DNA from: Egibacteraceae bacterium
GTDB lineage: Bacteria > Actinomycetota > Nitriliruptoria > Euzebyales > Egibacteraceae
Direction: 5' to 3'
Assembly (NCBI GenBank): GCA_050743125.1
Contig: JBOGEB010000013.1
Location: 11,287-43,286 of the forward strand
DNA length: 32,000 bases
Under the pieces are notes generated by a model. It was given only the letters and a program-made list of their open reading frames with translations. It had not been told where the DNA came from and did not search any database. Within the stretch, counting starts at the first letter, position 1, and each line of letters starts with the position of its first letter. The position numbers and the translations under genes were made by a program. Shown one piece after another: positions 7,630 through 18,100 of the stretch.

Positions 7630-7884
7630 CTACAGGTGTTGACTGTCCCCCTCGGGCGCGCGTCTCGACCCACGCTCCTCGATGAGTTCCCGCTGGACAC
7701 GCACCAGCGCTGAGTCCAGCTGGGGCAGGTGTTCGTCGACCGTATTGGCGATAATGTCAGGGTCCCGATCCCAGTACTCGTGGACCACCACGTTGCGAAA
7801 TCCCACAATCCTCCGCCACGGGATCTCTGGAGCGCGGCGGATGACGTCCTCCGAAAGGTGCTTGGCTGCCTCACCAATGCCTGT
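7630..7884 (-). pseudogene. HepT (DUF86/HEPN) toxin gene fragment, 5'-truncated, no start codon
   Basis: Manual minus-strand translation gives TGIGEAAKHLSEDVIRRAPEIPWRRIVGFRNVVVHEYWDRDPDIIANTVDEHLPQLDSALVRVQRELIEERG...QHL*. It contains the HEPN Rx4H motif (RNVVVH) and the IGEAAK box typical of HepT. The frame is closed upstream by TGA (7887..7885). The N-terminal ~45-50 aa and the cognate MNT gene are absent. It is missing from the ORF track. Confidence 0.65.
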
Positions 7885-7893
7885 TCAAGCATT

Positions 7894-9003
7894 CCCGGCG
7901 GCGTCCTCGCGATCGACGGCGACGAGGCTGATCGCCTCGCCGAGCGCCTGAAGGGCCTGCTCGCCGGCACGGTCCTGTTGGGCCGGTCCCGCCGGGCCGG
8001 GTACGGCGGGGACCCGGCGATCGAGTGGGACGCGCTGGGCGACCGCGAGGTCGAGGGGCCACAGGTGGTCCCGCTCGACCGGGATCTCCAGGCGGGCGGG
8101 ACCGTCCGGCTGCTGCTCACCTCGCCGTACCTCGGCCGTCATGCCGACACCGGTCAGCCCGACCCCACCTACCTGACGACCGAGATCGAGCGGCGCCTCG
8201 GCGCGGTCACCGTCGTGCGGCGGCGCTGGGCGTTCACCGAGGCCGGCGGCTACAACCGCGCTTGGGGGCTGCCGCTGCCCCAGCGCGCCGCCCTGGCCGC
8301 CGGATCAGTGCTGCTCCTGCGGGCGGACCACACCGTGCCTGCGGAACCGCTGCAGGACGTCGAGCACAGCGGGCTCGGCGACCGGCGGGTCGACGGCTTC
8401 GGCCGCTGCGTCTTCCTCCAGGCGCCGACCAAGACCGTCACCCTGCACGCCACCCCGAAGGCTCCACCGGCGCCGGCGCCCAACGGCCAGAGCCCGCCGA
8501 CGCTCGTGCGCACGATCGAGCGGCGGATCGCCGAGGCGCGGGTCCGTGACGAGATCGAAGACGTCGCCGCCACGATCGCCCACAGCGCGACAGGGATCCC
8601 GACGTCCAGCCTGATCGGGCGGCTGCGTGTGCCGTTGCGCGGCGACCCAGCGGCCGGGCTCGCCGAGCTCGCCGTATGGGTGGGGTCCAACGACACGACC
8701 GCGCGGCTGCGCCGACCGGCGCTCGACCAGCTCCACCGCTGCCGGCTGACAGAGCCCGACGAGGGGCCGACGACGACCCTTCTCACGTGGCTGCGAGACC
8801 TCTCCCACGACGGCGGGAAGCGACTCAACCGCCTCCTCCGGCTCGACGTCGTCGCCCACAACGCGGCGATCGGAGCAGAGGCCGCGCTCCGCGCAGACGT
8901 GGGGAAGAGCGCCACCGCGCACCGGGCGCTCCTGGTCGATGCGGTCCTGGCCGCGCTCCGCCTCCGGCTGAAGACCACGAGCCAGGAGGGCGTCGATGAC
9001 TGA
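7894..9003 (+). pseudogene. Cas5(Csx10)-Cas11 fusion-like type III subunit, N-terminally truncated
   Basis: The C-terminal ~370 aa of ORF 7729..9003 carries two RAMP glycine-rich loops (LLGRSRRAGYGG; GLGDRRVDGFGRCVF) plus GGYNRAWGLPLP, then a ~170-aa helical Cas11-like tail. The first G-loop lies ~30 aa from the junction, so most of the first RRM is missing. The ORF's first ~55 codons (7729-7893) are antisense to the HepT fragment and are not genuine coding. Confidence 0.6.
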
Positions 9004-10420
9004 CCTCGCCGACACCGGCGGTGCCCGCCGCCTCCGGGCACGTTGGGTGCTCGCCGCTGACCTCGTCCTCCGCACCGCCGCGCACCTCGGCGGGCAGGAC
9101 GAGGGAGCGGCCGACCTCAACGTGATCCGTGACCGGGTGGGCGGCGGGCCGCTCCTGCCAGGGACGTCGCTCGCGGGAGCGCTCCGCGGCCACCTGTGCG
9201 ACCGGCTGGGTGGGTACGCCAGCGCGGAGGCTGACCCGCGTATCGCGACGCTGTTCGGCGCCCGCCGCGCGGAGGACGGCGGCTCGCAGAGCCCGCTGGT
9301 CGTGTTCGACAGCCTCGGCCGCCTGCCTGCGGCTGGCACAGAGATCCGTGACGGGGTGAGCATCGACCACGGCACCGGCACCGCCGCCGAGAACAAGAAG
9401 TTCGACCTCGAGATCCTGCCCGCGGGAACGCGGTTCCCCGCCAGGATCGAGCTGCTGATCGACAACGGCGTCGATGAGCACGAGCTGGTCTCGCTGCTGC
9501 TCGCGGCCCTGCAGGGTCTGGCCGGCGGGGAGATCGCGCTCGGCGCGCGCCGCTCACGGGGACTCGGGCGCGTGGAGACCCGCGTATGGCGGGCCCACCG
9601 ATACGACCTCTCCTCGGCGGACGGGTGGCTGGCCTGGCTGTGCGCCGACCCCGCCGCGCCGATCCCCGACGACGTCGCCGGGCACGAGGATCCCGCTTCA
9701 GCGTGCGACACGGCGTGGCCGGCCCTGCGGCGGAGATCGACGCCGGACCAGCGCGAGCGCGTCACGGTCGTCGCGCGGCTGGAGGTGCAGGGCGCCGTCT
9801 TGGTCCGCAGCCCGGCGGACTCGGCCGACGCACCGGACGTCGCGCACCTCCGCTCGGGCGGCGTGGGTGTCCTGCCCGGCACGAGCCTTGCCGGCGTCCT
9901 GCGGGCTCGGGCGCTGCGGATCCTCGATCTCCTCGGCGCTGACGGACGCCGCGACGGGCTCGTCGACGGGCTGTTCGGGTGGACGCCCCAGGGTCGGGCC
10001 GAGCCGGGAGGCCGGTCGTCGCGCCTGCGGATCGCCGAGAGCGTGATCGACGGCGGCGACCCCGTCCGCCAGACCCGCATCCGCGTCGACCGCGCGACGC
10101 AGGGCGTTGCGCGAGGCGCGCTGTTCGAGGAGGAGCCGCACGCCGGCGGCGAGCTGGACGTGCGCATGGAGCTCCGGAGCCCGAGAGACGGCGAGACCGG
10201 TCTGGTCCTGCTGCTGCTCAAGGATCTCCTCACCGGCGACCTCCCGGTCGGGGGGAGCGCGGCGGTCGGTCGTGGCGTCGTACGCGGGTCGGCGGTCGTG
10301 ACGTTCCCGGACGGCAGCACCGCCCGCCTGGAGCCCCCCGAGGCCGAGCAGCGCGCTCGGCTCGACGCGGAGATCCGCATGCTCGCGGCGGTGGCCGCGC
10401 GACAGGAGGCTGCCCGGTGA
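8996..10420 (+). CDS. cas7: double Cas7 (Csm3/Cmr4-like x2) RAMP backbone subunit
   Basis: 474 aa with two repeats of the Cas7 signature (ADLNVIRDRVGGGPLLPGTSLAGALRGHL; DAPDVAHLRSGGVGVLPGTSLAGVLRARA) and G-rich loops (GARRSRGLGRV; GGSAAVGRGVV). Candidate catalytic Asp residues are retained in both halves. The ATG overlaps the upstream stop by 8 nt. Confidence 0.8.
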   Translation: MTDLADTGGARRLRARWVLAADLVLRTAAHLGGQDEGAADLNVIRDRVGGGPLLPGTSLAGALRGHLCDRLGGYASAEADPRIATLFGARRAEDGGSQSPLVVFDSLGRLPAAGTEIRDGVSIDHGTGTAAENKKFDLEILPAGTRFPARIELLIDNGVDEHELVSLLLAALQGLAGGEIALGARRSRGLGRVETRVWRAHRYDLSSADGWLAWLCADPAAPIPDDVAGHEDPASACDTAWPALRRRSTPDQRERVTVVARLEVQGAVLVRSPADSADAPDVAHLRSGGVGVLPGTSLAGVLRARALRILDLLGADGRRDGLVDGLFGWTPQGRAEPGGRSSRLRIAESVIDGGDPVRQTRIRVDRATQGVARGALFEEEPHAGGELDVRMELRSPRDGETGLVLLLLKDLLTGDLPVGGSAAVGRGVVRGSAVVTFPDGSTARLEPPEAEQRARLDAEIRMLAAVAARQEAAR

Positions 10421-11013
10421 TCACGCTCGAGCGCTGCACTCTGAGCCCGCTGTCACCCGAAGACTGCGGACAGCTTCTCGACTGGGTGCTCGGCGAGGGT
10501 CCGCCGCCGGACGATGCCGGCAATCCCCGCTGGCTGCTCGCCCACTGCGACGACGGGGTCGTCTGGGGCCACCGCCGGACGCCGGACGGCTCGTGGGCGC
10601 TGTCGTCGGCTGCGTTCCCGGCCGTCTCGCCGCCGCTGCGGGCCGGCACGCTCCAAGAGCTGCGCGTGTTCGGCTTCGACGAGGAGCGGCTGGTCTGGCG
10701 GGCCGACGGCGGGCTCGCCGGTCGCCGGCTCCGGGACGCGCCCAACGGGCGAGGCGAGGGGACCGAGCACGTGGAGGACGTCCGCATCGTCCGTGGCGAG
10801 CACGTCCCGGAGGAGCCCCGAAGCGGTTTCACGCTGGTCACCGACAGCGCCGGCTCACGGCACGCTGTGCCAACGGCGTGCGCAGAGGCGGAATTCAAGA
10901 ACGGTCAGCGGGTGCGGCTGGTGCTGCGCCACTACCTGGAGCAGGACTCGAAGACCGGGGCGGTGCGCATCGCCGCCACCCGTCTCGTCGACCTCGAGCT
11001 GGAGCGTGGATGA
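10417..11013 (+). CDS. csx19: Csx19-like (TIGR03984-type) small type III-D subunit
   Basis: GTG at 10417 overlaps the upstream TGA (GTGA), with AGGAGG 7 nt upstream. 198 aa. Its position between the double Cas7 and the large Cas7-insertion gene matches the III-D variant gene order. Family assignment is by recall plus synteny, not by alignment. Confidence 0.55.
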   Translation: MITLERCTLSPLSPEDCGQLLDWVLGEGPPPDDAGNPRWLLAHCDDGVVWGHRRTPDGSWALSSAAFPAVSPPLRAGTLQELRVFGFDEERLVWRADGGLAGRRLRDAPNGRGEGTEHVEDVRIVRGEHVPEEPRSGFTLVTDSAGSRHAVPTACAEAEFKNGQRVRLVLRHYLEQDSKTGAVRIAATRLVDLELERG

Positions 11014-11014
11014 C

Positions 11015-13216
11015 ATGGAGCACCTCCCCCACCACGTCAACCCGCCCGACGGCCGCACGGCGACGGCGCCGTACAACTTCGTGCCGCTCCCCCAGCAGGT
11101 GCTGCTCGCCGAGAGGGTGGTGACCGGCGAGCCGTGGAAGGCGCACGACCGCTGGCTGCCCGGCACCCACAGCGGGTGGATCGACCTCCAGATCGAGACG
11201 CTGACCCCGCTGTTCGTCCGCGGACCGGTCCTGCGCCAGGAAGGCGGGTGGGACAAGCGCGAGGCCCGCCTGCGCCCCGAGCCGTGGACGACGGCCGACG
11301 GCCGGCCGGCCATCCCCGGCTCGAGCCTGCGCGGGATGCTCCGCACCCTCGTCGAGATCCTCGCGTTCGCAACGATCACCCCGGTCAGCGACGCCAAGCC
11401 GTTCTTCCGCACGGTGTCCGCCGACCGGCTCGGCATCGCCTACCGCAACCGGGTCCTCCAGAACGGCAAGAGCAAGCCGGAGGGCGGGTTCCTCCGGCGC
11501 CGAGGAGAGGGTTGGGTAGTGGAGCCCGCAATGGTCCTGCGCGTGCCCCACCGCAAGCATGCCCAGGGCTTCGGTTACCGCCAGCACCCGAGCTACCACC
11601 CCGACTGGGCGCTCCAGCACCAGCAGTGCTGGGTGCAGCGCGACGGCGAGCGGGTGACAGCGATCGAGATCGGCGCGAAGAGGCCGAAGGGCGACGGTTG
11701 GGCCGAGGGCACGCTCGTGCTGACCGGCAGCGCGCCCAACAAGGAGGCCGAGTTCGTGTTCCTCGCGAACCGCGCCGCCAAGCCCGCCGAGGTCCCGGAC
11801 GAGGTCTGGGAGCGGTTCCACGACGACGACCAGATCAGCCAATGGCAGGAGAAGGGCTTCCCAGAGCACGAACCGGCAGGTGGCCGGCGCCGGGCCGCCG
11901 GCCACCTGCGCGACGGCGAGCCGGTGTTCTTCCTGCGGGAGAGCGCTGACCAAGTGCGGTTCCTCGGCCGCGCGCAGATGTTCCGGTTCCCGTACGACCG
12001 CAGCATGGCCGACCTCGTTCCCCCGGCGCTGCGCGGTGCCGAACTCGACGTCGCGGAGGCCGTGTTCGGCCGGGTGCGCAAGGACCGGAACGACCCGCTC
12101 CCGACCGTGAAGGGGCGCGTGTTCGTCGAGGACGCGGTCGGGGTCAGCCATCGGAGGGGGTGGTTCGAGCCTGATCTGGTCCCGCAGATCCTCTCGTCTC
12201 CCAAGCCGACGACGTTCCCTCACTACCTGACACAGGACGGCCGTCAGCCCAAGGAGGCGCTCACGACCTACCTCGCGGGCGACGAGACCACGATCCGCGG
12301 CCACAAGCTCTACTGGCACCGCTGGGGCGAGGACGAGCTGGCCGACGTCTGTGACCGGTCCCAGAGCCCCCGCAGCAGCCAGCACACGGTCATCCGACCG
12401 GTGCGGGCCGGGGTCACGTTCGAGGGACGGGTCCGCTTCGAGAACTTGAGCGACGTCGAGCTGGGCGCGCTCCTCGCGGCGCTGAGGCTCCCGTCCGGCT
12501 GCGCGCACAAGCTCGGCATGGCCAAGCCGCTCGGCCTGGGCAGCGTCAGGATCACCCCCGCGCTCCACCTCGTCGACCGCGCCGCGCGCTACCGCTCGTG
12601 GAGCGACACGGGGCAACGGCCTGACCAGGACGCGGCAGTAGAGGCGCATTGTGTGGACGCATTCGTGGCCGCAGTGCTCGCGCACGCCGGCACGAGCCAG
12701 GAGGCGACGCTGGAGGAGCAAGAGGGCCTCCGGAGGGTTGCCCGGCTCGACGCGCTCTTCACGATGCTGTCCTGGGAGGAACACCCGCCGCGGGAGGCGA
12801 CCGCGTACATGCCCCTGGCCGGCTTCAAGGACCGGAAGGTCCTCCCGACCCCGCACCGCGTAAGCGACCCCAAGCGGGACGAGCCGGACTGGCCCGGGCC
12901 CGCGCCGACGGCGGCGCCCGAGGAGCCCGACCCCGACCGTCCGCCGGCCGCTGCGACTGCCGTCGGCAGCGTCGTTCAGGGAACCGCGCTGGAGGCCAAG
13001 ACGAACAAGGGCGGCTGGGTGTTCGCCTTGCCCGACGGCCAGGAGGGCATCTTCGCCCCGGGCTGCCCTCAACCGTCTGATCTCGCGCCAGGGCGCCAGT
13101 ACAACTTTGTGCGGAAGACCGATCCACCGCGCAGCGAGCGGGCACAGCTGTGGTGGGTCGATCCCGACGCTCCTCCACCAGCGCCAAGGGCCCGGCCCGA
13201 CCGCCGTCGGCGCTAG
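11015..13216 (+). CDS. cas7: large RAMP protein, Cas7 with insertion (TIGR03986-like), with extra C-terminal domain
   Basis: 733 aa. Motifs: APYNFVPLP, GWIDLQIETLTPLFVRGP, RPAIPGSSLRGMLRTLVEILAF, LYWHRWG, and C-terminal G-loop KLGMAKPLGLGSVRIT. A large insertion separates the motifs. The ATG is 2 nt after the upstream stop. Confidence 0.8.
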   Translation: MEHLPHHVNPPDGRTATAPYNFVPLPQQVLLAERVVTGEPWKAHDRWLPGTHSGWIDLQIETLTPLFVRGPVLRQEGGWDKREARLRPEPWTTADGRPAIPGSSLRGMLRTLVEILAFATITPVSDAKPFFRTVSADRLGIAYRNRVLQNGKSKPEGGFLRRRGEGWVVEPAMVLRVPHRKHAQGFGYRQHPSYHPDWALQHQQCWVQRDGERVTAIEIGAKRPKGDGWAEGTLVLTGSAPNKEAEFVFLANRAAKPAEVPDEVWERFHDDDQISQWQEKGFPEHEPAGGRRRAAGHLRDGEPVFFLRESADQVRFLGRAQMFRFPYDRSMADLVPPALRGAELDVAEAVFGRVRKDRNDPLPTVKGRVFVEDAVGVSHRRGWFEPDLVPQILSSPKPTTFPHYLTQDGRQPKEALTTYLAGDETTIRGHKLYWHRWGEDELADVCDRSQSPRSSQHTVIRPVRAGVTFEGRVRFENLSDVELGALLAALRLPSGCAHKLGMAKPLGLGSVRITPALHLVDRAARYRSWSDTGQRPDQDAAVEAHCVDAFVAAVLAHAGTSQEATLEEQEGLRRVARLDALFTMLSWEEHPPREATAYMPLAGFKDRKVLPTPHRVSDPKRDEPDWPGPAPTAAPEEPDPDRPPAAATAVGSVVQGTALEAKTNKGGWVFALPDGQEGIFAPGCPQPSDLAPGRQYNFVRKTDPPRSERAQLWWVDPDAPPPAPRARPDRRRR

Positions 13217-13631: not shown

Positions 13632-14390
13632 ATGCCGGTCGCCTACACGCTCCTGCTCCGAACCGGAGCCGCGGCGCCGGAGCCGACGCATGAGGATCTG
13701 CACCGGCTCGCGTGCCGGCTGGTGGAGCCGCCGGGCAACCCGGCGCATCAGGATCAGCGCAAGCCGTTCACGCTGTGGCCGCTGCAGGTGGCGCCGGAGC
13801 GGGGAGACGAGTGCCAGCTGCGGCTGAACTGGCTGCCGGTCGACGACGGCCTCGGCAGCCACCTGCGGCTGGCGCTGGGCCGGCGGCTGTGGCTGGGGAC
13901 CGCGGAGGTCGTCCCGCTCGACGTCGACCGACAGGGCACGAGCTACCAGACACTGCGTGACCTCCCACCGCTGTGGCAAGCCGACCTGCGGTTCCTCTCC
14001 CCCACCTATTTCTCGCGCAGCGGGAGGGACTACCTGCTGCCCGACCCGGCGCTGATCGTGCGCAGCCTCGTCGTCCGCTGGAACGAGCAGGTCGAGGAGC
14101 GCCCCGCGCTGGCGATCGACGGGGACGTGGCGCGCGAGCTCGGCCGGCGGGTGATCCTCAAGGCCCACGAGCTGTACACCGTGCGGGTGACGGGCGCGGA
14201 CGGACGGCCGCGGACCGGGTTCAAGGGGCAGGCGCGGCTGGGTCTGCGGACCGCCGAGCGACGCTCGGCCGAGGGCGTCGCCTGCGCGCGGCTGCTCGCC
14301 ACGCTGTGCGCCTTCGTGCCCTACTGCGGGTTGGGGGCGCAGACGACGCACGGCCTCGGCGCCGTCGCGGTCTACTCGGCGGATGGGTGA
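13632..14390 (+). CDS. cas6: Cas6 CRISPR RNA endoribonuclease
   Basis: 252 aa. Strong SD (GGAGAGGAGG). C-terminal Cas6 glycine-rich signature YCGLGAQTTHGLGAV. Double-RRM size, and position immediately upstream of the adaptation genes. Confidence 0.8.
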   Translation: MPVAYTLLLRTGAAAPEPTHEDLHRLACRLVEPPGNPAHQDQRKPFTLWPLQVAPERGDECQLRLNWLPVDDGLGSHLRLALGRRLWLGTAEVVPLDVDRQGTSYQTLRDLPPLWQADLRFLSPTYFSRSGRDYLLPDPALIVRSLVVRWNEQVEERPALAIDGDVARELGRRVILKAHELYTVRVTGADGRPRTGFKGQARLGLRTAERRSAEGVACARLLATLCAFVPYCGLGAQTTHGLGAVAVYSADG

Positions 14391-16254
14391 GCTGCTCGAC
14401 CGGGCGGCGCGCCAGCAGGCGCTGCTGGACGCCTAGCACGACCTGCGCGCCGAGGCCCGGCAGGAGGGGCGGCTCGACGCGCACTTCGCGGCGTTCGAGC
14501 ACCAAGCGGCACAGCGGCTGGCCACGATCTCGAGCAGGCTGCGCGAGGGCGCCTGGCAGCCGTCGCCGGTGCGCCGGGTGGCCATCGCGAAGCCGGCGGG
14601 CGGCCAGCGGGTCCTCGGCGTGCCAGTCCTGGAGGACCGCGTGGTCGAGCGCGCCCTGCTCCGTGTCATCGACACGGTGATCGACCCCGAGCTGCTGCCT
14701 TGGTCGTTCGGCTACCGCCGAGGCCTGGGGGTGCAGGATGCGCTGCGCTGCCTGACCGAGGCGCGGGACGAGGGCGCGCCCTGGGTCGCCCGCGGCGACT
14801 TCACCCGCTGCTTCGACGAGGTCCCGCGCGCCCGGCTGCTGGACCGGCTCGCGAAGGTCGTCCCGGACGCCGAGCTGGTCGACCTCGTCCGGGCGCTCGT
14901 GCACCGGCCGGTCGAGGGCGGACCGCGGCACAGCGAGAAGGGGCTGCACCAGGGGTCCGCGATCTCGCCCGTCCTCACGAACCTCTACCTCGACCAGTTC
15001 GACCGGACGATGCTCGACGGCGGCTGGCAGGTGATCCGCTACGGCGACGACTACGCCATCCCGGTCGCCGACCGTGTGGCCGGCGACGCGGCGGTCGGGG
15101 CCGCGCAGCGGGCCGCGGCCGGCCTCGGCCTGGAGCTGAGCCCACAGAAGTGCAGCGTCCGCTCGTTCGACGAGGGCGTGCCCTTCCTCGGCCAGGTCGT
15201 CACCAGCGGCACAGGGCTGCGGACCGAGCAGCGCAGCCATCCGCACGCCACGACCGTGTTCGTGGCCGAGGAGCCGAACGGGCTGCTGCGCAGCCGCGGC
15301 TCCCGTCTGCGGTTGGAGCGCGGCGGCGAGCTGGTGTTCAGCGTCGCCTTCCCGCGCGTCCGCCAGGTCGTGGTGTTCGGGCGGGTCGGGATGACCACTC
15401 CGTTCCTCCAGCAGGTCCTGGTCCGCGGCATCGACGTGGTGCTGCTCAGCGACCACGGCAGGTACATCGGCCGGCTGCAGGGCGCGACGGCGACGAACCC
15501 GTTCGTCCGGCAGCGCCAGTACGAGGCCGAGCGCACGAGCGCGCGCCGGATGGACCTGGCGCAGCGGGTCGTCCGTGGGAAGATCGTCAACCTGCGGGTC
15601 GGGCTGCTGCGAGCGCGCCGACGCGTGGAGCAGCCGTCGTTCACGCGCCGCATCGACCGAATGGGCGAGCTGCTCGAGTCCGTGCCCGGCGCGAGGAGCC
15701 TGGCGTCGCTGATGGGCGTCGAGGGCGCGGCGACGCGCGACTACTTCGCCGGGCTCACCCAGCTCATCGCTGCTGAGTGGGGGTTCACGCACCGACGGCG
15801 CCGGCCACCGTCCGACCCCTTCAACTCCCTGCTCAGCCTCGGCTACACGCTGCTGTTCCAAGAGACGATCGCCGCGTTGGAGGTCGCCGGCCTCGACCCG
15901 TACGTCGGCTTCCTGCACGAGGCGCGGGTCGGCCGGCCGGGCCTGGCGCTCGACCTGATCGAGGAGTTCCGGCCCGTGATCTTCGACTCGGTCGCGCTGC
16001 GGGCGGTGAACACCGGGATGCTGCGCCAAGAGCACTTCACGTGCGACCCCGGCCCACCCGTGTCGTGCCTGCTGACCAACGAGGGGCGGAAGCTCTACCT
16101 GGCCGCCTACGAACGGCGCATGCTCACGCTGATGAGCCATCCCGGCACGCACCGCCGGGTCTCCTATCGTGTGGCGCTCAGCCTGCAGGCCCGCGCGCTC
16201 GCCGACGAGCTGCTCGGCCAAGCCGCCCGCTACGAGCCGCTGGTGTGGAAGTGA
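14383..16254 (+). CDS. cas1: reverse transcriptase-Cas1 fusion, interrupted by in-frame TAG at 14434-14436 (longest clean ORF 14569..16254)
   Basis: ATG at 14383 overlaps the cas6 stop (ATGGGTGA). N-terminus is MGELLDRAARQQALLDA*HDLRAEA.... RT motifs: KPAGGQRVLGVPVLEDRVVERALL, GDFTRCFDEV, GLHQGSAISPVLTNLYL, RYGDDYAI (YxDD), FLGQVV. The Cas1 part carries GVEGAATRDYF, NSLLSLGYTLL, GFLHEARVGRPGLALDLIEEFRP. Confidence 0.85.
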
Positions 16255-16529
16255 TCTACCTCGTCGCCTACGACATCGCCGACGACCGCCGCCGCGAGGA
16301 GATCGCCGCCATCCTCTCCACCTACGGCGCCCGGGTGCAGCTGAGCGTCTTCGAGTGCGAGCTGGCCGACCCCGCCACCGTGGCAACGGTCACGGGCTTG
16401 CTCACCCGCACGATCGAGCCCGCCGAGGACCAGATCCGCCTGTACCCCCTGCCCGCCGGCTCCGTCCGCGGAACCGAGATCATCGGCAACCGCCGCCTCG
16501 AGGAGCGCGCCGACTTCTGGATCGTATGA
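16251..16529 (+). CDS. cas2: Cas2
   Basis: The GTG start overlaps the RT-Cas1 stop (GTGA). 92 aa: VIYLVAYDIADDRRREEIAAILSTYGARVQLSVFECEL...IRLYPL, typical Cas2. Confidence 0.85.
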   Translation: MIYLVAYDIADDRRREEIAAILSTYGARVQLSVFECELADPATVATVTGLLTRTIEPAEDQIRLYPLPAGSVRGTEIIGNRRLEERADFWIV

Positions 16530-16758
16530 CGGCCCCCGGGTCCCTGCGGCTGTCGGATTCACCCCCTTTCGACCGACCGTTGCAGCCCCTCACGCCACGA
16601 CGCCAAACCGGCCCGGTGCGCGCTACGCCATTTCCGCTGGTCAGCGCCCTGCCCGCCCCACACCCGTCCTTCCCTCGGCCCCTCTCCACCCCCCGCCCGC
16701 CCCGGTCCGCGCAACGCCGCGTATACTCCCAGGTCAGCGGCCCCTTTCTGCGGGAAGG

Positions 16759-16869
16759 GTTCCCCCTTAACGCCCGGTGCTCAGGGCATAGAAACGCCGC
16801 CTTCAACATGTGGAGTTGAGGAAAGCGATACCGTTCCGCCTTAGGCCTCGATGTTTCATGTGATTATGC
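16759..16869 (+). CRISPR. vestigial CRISPR array: one 37-nt repeat, one 37-nt spacer, one degenerate terminal repeat
   Basis: R1 (16759-16795) is GTTCCCCCTTAACGCCCGGTGCTCAGGGCATAGAAAC, with a GCCC/GGGC hairpin followed by an 8-nt ATAGAAAC tail. R2 starts exactly 74 nt later (16833) as GTTCCGCCTTAGGCCTCGATGTTTCAT...; 10 of the first 11 nt are identical, then it degenerates. The spacer (16796-16832) is ~54% GC versus ~70% locally. The array begins 230 nt downstream of cas2 on the same strand. There are only two copies, so this is tentative. Confidence 0.4.
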
Positions 16870-16919
16870 GGGGCGGGTCTGAGGGGCCTGTGGGGCTGTC
16901 GATGAGAGCGCAGGAGACG

Positions 16920-16942
16920 AAAAAACCGGCCGTGGCCGGGTT
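16920..16942 (-). terminator. weak intrinsic-terminator-like hairpin with T6 tail (minus strand)
   Basis: The minus strand reads AACCCGGCCACGGCCGGTTTTTT. A T6 run is rare at this GC content. It lies ~110 nt downstream of the transposase-fragment stop. The stem is short (4-6 bp). Confidence 0.3.
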
Positions 16943-17054
16943 GAGGCAGCAGTCGACGGATGTTCGGATGGTGTTGGGGCAGGCTGAGGCAGCGGCAGGG
17001 CCGCTGGCAGATGTTGTGAGAGGATTGTCGGACGGCGAGGGGAGATCAGGCCCG

Positions 17055-17509
17055 TCAGGTGGCCGGTAGGGGCAGTGCGTCCAACCGTTCGAACGCCGCT
17101 GCCAGCTGGGCCGCCCACGGCCAGTCATGCTGGATTCTCAGCTTCAGCCGCCGGCCCGAGCGGACGATCCGCGCTGGGGCGTGCAGCACCTTGCAGCGCA
17201 GGGTGGCGGGCTCGGCCAGCCGCAGCCGACCGTCGAACGTCAACACCTGCGTCCACACCATGAGCTCCTGAGCCGTCATCACCGGCTGCAGCCAGACGGC
17301 GTCGCGTTCGAACGTCTCGCACGGCAGGTTGCGCGCCCCGGTGTCACAAGGCGTGCGCGGATGCGGTCCTCGACGTGCGCGAGGCCGCGATGGCGCACGT
17401 CCCGGCCGGCGAGATCCGCGTCGGGCTGGTCGGTGAGGAAGGCGGTGAACCGTTTCCCGTCGACGTCGAACAGGGTCTGCTGCGCCCCGGGATGCAGCGC
17501 CGTGAAGCC
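17055..17509 (-). mobile_element. IS1380-family transposase gene fragment (C-terminal ~150 aa only, frameshifted)
   Basis: Two minus frames together read HPGAQQTLFDVDGKRFTAFLTDQPDADLAGRDVRHRGLAHVEDRIR / DTGARNLPCETFERDAVWLQPVMTAQELMVWTQVLTFDGRLRLAEPATLRCKVLHAPARIVRSGRRLKLRIQHDWPWAAQLAAAFERL. This matches the conserved IS1380 C-terminus as I recall it. The N-terminal ~300 aa are absent. Confidence 0.7.
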
Positions 17510-18100
17510 GCGCGACGATCTCGCGGAACCGGTCCAGGACACGGCCGCAGCCCAGATCTTTGGTGTTGGCCACGATGGCCTCGAAACGCAGGACGTGCTC
17601 GCCTTTGGTGTACGCCTTGGAGGGTCAGGTTGCCGAAGCGGGACCTTGAACACCGTCAGGTCGTAACAAGGTGTGGCGACCACGGCCTCGACGCGCCAGG
17701 TGCTCGTGCGGTTGCGGTGAGGACGGCTCTTGGCGCCGAACAGGGTCCGTATCTTCGCCCACGTCCAGCCTGGAGCGGGTGCGGTCTACCAGCTGCCCGA
17801 AGACCCGCTGGATCTGGGCGCCGGAGGAGAACAGCAGATTGCGGCTGTATTCGGCCTGATAAACCGAGTAGGAGCAGCGAAAGCCGCTGCGCTGCTGATC
17901 TGCCAGGTCCAAACCGAAGCACAGACACGCCGAGTAGATCCGGGCGCTCGCAGACCTGGCTTGCCCGCCCTACTGTCGCCTGCTGCGACAAGGTGTCTGC
18001 GATCTAAAGCCAGGCCTGCGGGGTCGGCTGTACGAGTGAAGCAGTTGCCTTCTTTGACGAAGCCGATCCCCGCCTTGCGCGCTGTTAGCCGCCAGGGTTT
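17505..18100 (-). pseudogene. second degraded transposase-like/conserved actinobacterial ORF, spread over three frames
   Basis: Minus-strand pieces in successive frames read GIGFVKEGNCFTRTADPAGL..., YSVYQAEYSRNLLFSSGAQIQRVFGQLVDRTRSRLDV, IRTLFGAKSRP, YDLTVFKV, RFGNLTL and KAYTKGEHVLRFEAIVANTKDLGCGRVLDRFREIVARL. The series ends abruptly where the IS1380 fragment begins (~17505-17512). I did not recognise the family with confidence. Confidence 0.5.

Follow-up and report, generated by a model that had tools for sequence, protein, structure and literature searches.

Positions 16759-16843 of the window (the window being the whole 32,000-nucleotide stretch of DNA that was analysed) are very probably what is left of a type III CRISPR array cut by a mobile element within its second repeat (R2), of which the leading 9-11 nt survive behind one complete repeat (R1) and a 37-nt spacer. 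The original prediction had described a vestigial single-spacer array directly after cas2, and this description was backed by orthologous cas2-linked arrays with R1-like repeats. Under the finder criterion of at least two full direct repeats, the region offers one full repeat and a second copy of 9-11 nt. Since only one repeat is full, the region was classed as the remnant of an array, not as an array by finder criteria.

Results

The cas operon

The remnant belongs to a type III cas operon on the plus strand, which is part of contig C13 of a 4.66-Mb assembly (392 contigs, 69% GC). The effector genes, all on the plus strand, encode a Csx10/Cmr3-like RAMP protein (7729-9003), a Csx7/Cas7-like protein (8996-10420), and a TIGR03986 multi-RAMP protein of 900 aa (10514-13216, E 4e-117), the last of which had secondary similarity to Cas7-11 models of types III-E and III-I. 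No Cas10 was found among the ORFs of the window, and no Cmr2-type Cas10 (TIGR02577) in the assembly.

The cas6 gene (13632..14390, +) encodes 252 aa and was apparently intact, matching Pfam CRISPR_Cas6 (3.9e-16) and TIGR01877. Over residues 1-245, its product shared 52% identity with that of a related locus on a metagenome contig (L048); it contained no stops and was the only PF10040 Cas6 in the assembly. The RT-cas1 fusion (14383..16254, +) contained the RVT_1 and Cas_Cas1 domains and matched group II intron RT and Cas1 models. An in-frame TAG was present at 14434-14436, 17 codons downstream of the ATG, which itself overlaps the stop codon of cas6, and it replaced a Trp conserved in L043 and L006, the two full-length orthologues (LLDA(stop)HDLR versus LIDAWDEIR and LLDAWSTIR). 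The next in-frame start was the GTG at 14569, the use of which would remove the N-terminal extension of the RT. The cas2 gene (16251..16529, +; 92 aa; Pfam CRISPR_Cas2, TIGR01573), whose GTG start overlaps the cas1 stop, was intact, and its product was 52-61% identical to the Cas2 proteins of L006, L043, and L046. Both Cas6 and Cas2 were thus full length relative to their relatives, and the reading frame of RT-Cas1 was interrupted with its domains still present. Judging from the sequence of the gene, the TAG in RT-Cas1 makes the acquisition of new spacers unlikely.

Orthologous loci and the repeat family

With up to three mismatches allowed, R1 was the sole copy in the window, as had been predicted, and also in the whole 4.66-Mb assembly. 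The search of relatives that had been proposed as a check did not find R1 at the same threshold in the 34 other genomes of the family, which are mostly incomplete and too distant for a near-exact pattern. R1 was therefore tested through orthologous loci. An RT-Cas1 protein search over 401 genomes of the phylum returned one full-length orthologue (G373, locus L006; 55% identity). This locus contained at least 14 copies of a 37-nt repeat, the first of them 188 nt past cas2, with a spacing of 70-79 nt. The L006 repeat matched R1 at 25 of the 37 positions without gaps; the two repeats agreed in the block AACGCCCG, in AGGGCAT, which forms the other side of the stem, and in the GAAAC tail, and differed in a 6-nt loop stretch and the 5' decamer.

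The 20-base motif common to R1 and the L006 repeat, AACGCCCG-N6-AGGGCAT-N-GAAAC, was used as the pattern for a metagenome collection. The motif search yielded 17 stretches, 13 of which were arrays (two pairs near-identical) with 37-nt repeats matching R1 at 23-30 of 37 positions. L039, L045, and L050 were set aside as chance or unrelated hits, being single copies of the motif without an array, and that of L039 apparently lies in coding sequence upstream of an ORF. L043 contained Cas6 (50% identity), RT-Cas1 (61%), and Cas2 (60%) followed by the array; L046 contained RT-Cas1 (61%) and Cas2 (61%) followed by a 234-nt leader and the array; in L048 the array followed Cas6 (52%). The repeats of the cas-linked loci L043 and L046 matched R1 at 25-29 of 37 positions, again ungapped. 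The closest repeat, that of L047 (30/37), had the same loop, GGTGCTC, on a contig linked to the family by a homologous leader. Altogether, cas2 was followed by an array in three orthologous loci with RT-Cas1 proteins 55-61% identical to that of the window, the number of repeats ranging from 4 to at least 14. An unrelated repeat in the orthologous arrays had been named as the outcome that would speak against the prediction, and the opposite was found, with ungapped 37-nt repeats sharing 25-29 of 37 positions with R1.

One further member of the family was itself a one-spacer array. On metagenome contig Ga0066678_10042887 (L049, oriented positions 928-1043), a full repeat was followed by a 42-nt spacer and a drifting second copy, and no cas gene was detected on this 2.5-kb contig.

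The leader-proximal repeat

R1 (16759..16795, +) was recognised as a complete 37-nt leader-proximal CRISPR repeat by homology to related arrays, by a covariance model of the family, and by its hairpin. The hairpin has a 4-bp GCCC/GGGC stem, in which G14-C17 pairs with G26-C29, and an 8-nt loop, and is followed by the 8-nt tail AUAGAAAC, so R1 has the form of a Cas6 substrate, namely a hairpin with an 8-nt 3' tail. The letters and coordinates first given for this unit, together with its description as a Cas6-type repeat with a tail ending in GAAAC, were exact, and the orthologous repeats proved homologous. Against shuffled sequences, the stability of the R1 hairpin was not significant (z = -0.35), and for this reason the evidence for the hairpin is its conservation across loci, not its folding energy. 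Among the 13 repeats from other loci, the stem and GAAAC were invariant and the loop was variable; the stem, being constant, leaves no room for covariation.

A covariance model built from these 13 repeats and searched against the window and the genome retrieved R1 only (39.9 bits, E 2.5e-6), a score that is partly circular since most members had been retrieved with an R1-derived motif. The independent case for the homology of R1 is L006, which was found via the RT-Cas1 protein alone. No Rfam family matched within the window. As judged by these comparisons, R1 is a genuine leader-proximal repeat of the type III locus cas6/RT-cas1/cas2, because it occupies the site of the orthologues' first repeat, is preceded by a homologous leader, and is a member of the same 37-nt family as their repeats.

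Leader and spacer

The leader (16530..16758, +) spans 229 nt, compared with 188-234 nt in L006, L043, and L046, and could be aligned with its counterparts in L046 and L047, less strongly with the one in L006. Blocks such as GGTCCGCGCAAC and TCCCAG.TCAG were common to the window, L046, and L047, and the junction with the first repeat (AGG followed by GT) was conserved. The position and orientation of the array were as expected, downstream of cas2, behind the leader, and on the same strand as the cas genes. A consensus scan of 16400-17200 found no sigma-70-like promoter, a result that says little for this phylum.

The single spacer (16796..16832, +) is 37 nt long and gives a period of 74 nt, which falls inside the 70-79 nt range of L006 and equals the modal period of that array. 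The intervening 37 nt had been said to be less GC-rich than the genome, which held true (54% versus 69%). No match of the spacer longer than 13 nt was present elsewhere in the window or the genome. The proposed comparison with phage and plasmid databases gave no significant protospacer match (best E 0.5), and in IMG/VR contigs there was no exact match to the full spacer or to either of its ends of about 20 nt.

The second repeat

The second copy was originally placed at 16833-16869, 74 nt after R1, with 10 of 11 positions matching at its 5' end. This match was exact as given and lay beyond chance. The repeat-derived part (GTTCCGCCT+TA; 16833..16843, +) comprises the first 9-11 nt of a repeat, with one mismatch to R1 at position 6. 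The sequence GTTCCCCCTTA with at most one mismatch occurred at 2.4e-6 per position in the genome, which, for 21 plausible offsets, amounts to a probability of about 5e-5; restricting the count to the 9 nt that cannot derive from the IS raised it to 2e-3. In addition, the 5' end common to R1 and R2, GTTCC.CCTTA, departs from the family consensus GTCGC, and this shared unusual end is as expected if R2 is a copy of the same lineage-specific repeat.

The original prediction took the remainder of this copy for decay of the kind often seen in terminal repeats, and this part did not stand. Compared with R1, R2 matched at 8/9 of positions 1-9, 2/2 of positions 10-11, and 9/26 of positions 12-37; compared with a segment of contig C52, the corresponding values were 2/9, 2/2, and 25/26. 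The sequence from 16842 onward is an IS terminus, which means that the 3' part of R2 was replaced and did not decay. R2 is hence best described as a chimera in which the outer end of an IS5-family element follows the initial 9-11 nt of a repeat. Ordinary arrays of the family do have degenerate terminal repeats, and in L040, L041, L044, and L049, as in R2, the last copy departs from the consensus towards its 3' end. Those copies, however, keep about 24-27 nt (L049 also: about 16 nt) before drifting, whereas R2 switches after 9-11 nt to the IS terminus.

Mobile elements downstream of the remnant

The outer-end remnant of the IS5-family insertion sequence (16842..16883, -), which includes the last codons and the stop of the transposase frame, was 39/42 identical to C52:23376-23417, the only other copy of the 42-nt segment in the genome. 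Its C52 counterpart begins 10 nt downstream of the stop codon of an HpcH-aldolase gene and includes the 3' end of an ORF on the minus strand, the C-terminus of which (RWVVERTLAW...) matched IS5-family and DDE_Tnp_1 models weakly. The NF033580 IS5 score was 27.9 bits against a cut-off of 110 and came from the C-terminal motif only, the DDE_Tnp_1 and DDE_Tnp_1_2 scores were below the gathering scores, and the ORF runs off the contig. The 42-nt segment is accordingly a putative IS5-family terminus, an assignment that rests on one other copy and on transposase matches below curated cut-offs. A search of 142 other genomes of the class did not recover the 23-nt core of this terminus. No inverted copy was present anywhere in the assembly, and neither a second IS end nor a target duplication was seen.

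At the junction, the dinucleotide TA is common to R1, R2, and the C52 flank, and the switch from repeat to IS sequence accordingly falls at position 10-12 of R2. The similarity to C52 stopped after 42 nt. The ORF at 16864-17118 (-) of the window had no protein similarity to the C52 transposase beyond the shared end, which leaves about 42 nt of the IS5-family element.

Further downstream, a C-terminal fragment of an IS1380-family transposase (17055..17573, -) was detected by Pfam DDE_Tnp_1_4 (5.8e-13) and NCBIfam transpos_IS1380 (3e-14), in both cases over the last ~90 profile positions only. Pieces related to this fragment were present on other contigs, and the terminator scan found a terminator-like hairpin at 16926-16939 on the minus strand, the same strand as the fragment. 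At least two mobile-element events are stacked downstream of R2. Transposase debris had been predicted to begin some 190 nt after the array; mobile-element sequence is already present at 16842, inside R2. The suggestion that mobile elements truncated the array gained support as the probable course of events, with an IS5-family end within R2 and IS1380 debris beyond it. Neither the missing part of R2 nor additional repeats could be traced in the assembly.

Other repeats in the genome

A second CRISPR-Cas locus at C7:50008-52045 consists of a Cas1 gene and, after it, an array in which a 31-nt repeat, GTTGCTCATCACCCCGTAGAGGGATTGAAAC, is present at least seven times with a periodicity of 67-69 nt. 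An orphan array lies at about 2139-2615 of C153 (L004) and contains at least five copies of a 37-nt repeat, GTCGCACCGCCCTCCCCGCGAGATAGGGGATTGAAGC, whose 4-bp stem, 8-nt loop, and 8-nt tail follow the plan of the R1 family. No cas genes stand beside it, its neighbours being an EEP-family nuclease and HicA. Since the Cas6 of the window is the only one of its Pfam family in the assembly, it might serve the C153 array in trans.

The genome also contained a dispersed family of near-perfect tandem repeats (unit length 87-95 nt, copy number 2.4-3.4, match 97-100%), several of them at contig ends. They were located at C6:32394-32695, C27:30979-31212, C34:28878-29086, C41:23008-23263, C86:5121-5356, C168:9301-9507, C183:1-206, C206:1-297, and C308:112-365. 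Their units had in common a core such as GTCGAAACTCC..GGGCGGTGTCGC..AGTCGCCGACGA in either orientation, and the three checked in Rfam gave no match. These repeats have no unique spacers and are therefore not CRISPR.

Discussion

Other explanations of the remnant were weighed against truncation by a mobile element. The short array could be an artefact of assembly or of a strain mixture, the organism having a longer array of which the assembler kept the leader, R1, and one spacer before jumping into an IS. The assembly is fragmented into 392 contigs with 5.1% contamination, and the orphan array on C153 contains a 100-N gap with duplicated flanks. We nevertheless consider this very unlikely, given that R2 and the IS terminus have no long exact word in common with other array sequence able to cause a false join, that the only other copy of the terminus, on C52, has a different left flank, and that no other R1-family repeat was found on any contig, contig ends included. 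The TAG in RT-Cas1 is, moreover, an independent sign of decay at the locus. It is extremely unlikely that R1 is a genuine but solitary repeat, with the 5' likeness of R2 due to chance, no spacer, and unrelated DNA after a lone first repeat. A match to the first 9-11 nt of R1 with at most one mismatch at the canonical offset has the low chance given above (2e-3 to 5e-5), the 74-nt period is the modal one of the orthologous array, R2 has the lineage-specific GTTCC.CCTTA of R1 and not the consensus GTCGC, and the 54% GC of the spacer resembles foreign DNA. These points outweigh the facts that just 9 nt of R2 are certainly not IS and that short matches of 10-13 nt occur frequently in this genome of 69% GC.

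The remnant could also be a mini-array retained under selection, with one fixed guide acting as a regulatory crRNA-like RNA or as the guide of a Cas10-less multi-Cas7 effector. The intact Cas6 and Cas2, the effector genes including a TIGR03986 multi-RAMP protein related to Cas7-11, the need of a type III crRNA for a cut in the upstream repeat only, and the second one-spacer array of the R1 family in the metagenome (L049) are consistent with it. Against these stand the lack of a visible self target (no partial spacer match above 13 nt in the window or the genome), a right boundary that is an IS junction and not a conserved degenerate repeat, the lesion in RT-Cas1, and the lack of any orthologue with a conserved one-spacer layout at this position, and we hold such retention to be barely probable. 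A related proposal, that the lone spacer is still expressed, cut by Cas6 at R1, and used as a single fixed guide by the upstream Cas10-less multi-Cas7 (TIGR03986/Csx7/Csx10-like) effector, is most improbable; if it were true, the decayed locus would be a one-guide RNA-targeting or regulatory device and not dead DNA.

Under the preferred reading, a type III array cut by a mobile element, an IS5-family element would have inserted into the second repeat, possibly at TTAA, and a later IS1380 insertion with a deletion would have removed most of that element together with the distal array. With RT-Cas1 broken, the array would no longer be able to grow. Cas6 cleavage of a hairpin repeat leaves an 8-nt tag in type III systems, and the 3' end of a type III-A/B crRNA matures by trimming, without Cas6 cutting a second time. 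Provided that the leader still promotes transcription, Cas6 would be expected to cut R1 between C29 and A30, at the 3' base of the hairpin, and the predicted single crRNA would begin with the 5' tag AUAGAAAC, followed by GCCGCCUUCAAC... Because its 3' end would be set by trimming, an intact R2 would not be strictly needed, and one guide could still be formed. Whether any effector is able to use this lone guide is doubtful.

RT-Cas1-associated type III systems are known, among them the type III-D system of Vibrio vulnificus YJ016 (PMC6821258), and have been surveyed (PMC5513706). As in those systems, the window has an RT-Cas1 and Cas2 module beside a leader and array, a separate Cas6, and a repeat with a small hairpin and a GAAAC end. 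Short arrays occur there too, CRISPR01 of V. vulnificus having two spacers only (PMC6821258). The window differs from them in its one spacer, its cut second repeat, and its premature RT-Cas1 stop, and its repeat belongs to a separate 37-nt family found on metagenome contigs and in one genome of the same phylum, known here from sequence. A direct precedent for the junction is the type III-A locus of M. tuberculosis H37Rv, in which a direct repeat was split by IS6110, leaving a chimeric IS/repeat (PMC7820667). In both actinobacteria, IS insertion into a repeat of a type III array, probable in the case of the window, left a unit that is part repeat and part IS terminus, together with decay of the cas locus. 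In M. tuberculosis, however, IS6110 (an IS3-family element) is intact and accompanied by a 3-bp duplication, and on its far side the second half of the repeat and the remaining array are preserved, whereas in the window the element is putatively of the IS5 family, only about 42 nt of it are left, and the far side of the array is gone.

The locus is an ordinary case of immune-locus decay, nothing new in kind; what it adds is a further example, for which the repeat family and the leader have been newly delimited. CRISPR finders will miss a one-repeat array of this sort, and its second copy would be misread as a decayed repeat and not as a repeat/IS chimera. The 37-nt family is now delimited as a variable 5' decamer, AACGCCCG, a variable 6-nt stretch, AGGGCAT, any one base, and GAAAC, and together with the conserved leader it can serve as a query for related RT-Cas1 arrays in metagenomes. 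Taken with the stop in RT-Cas1, the remnant documents how, in an uncultured bacterium of high GC content, insertion sequences dismantle a type III RT-Cas1 locus in successive steps.
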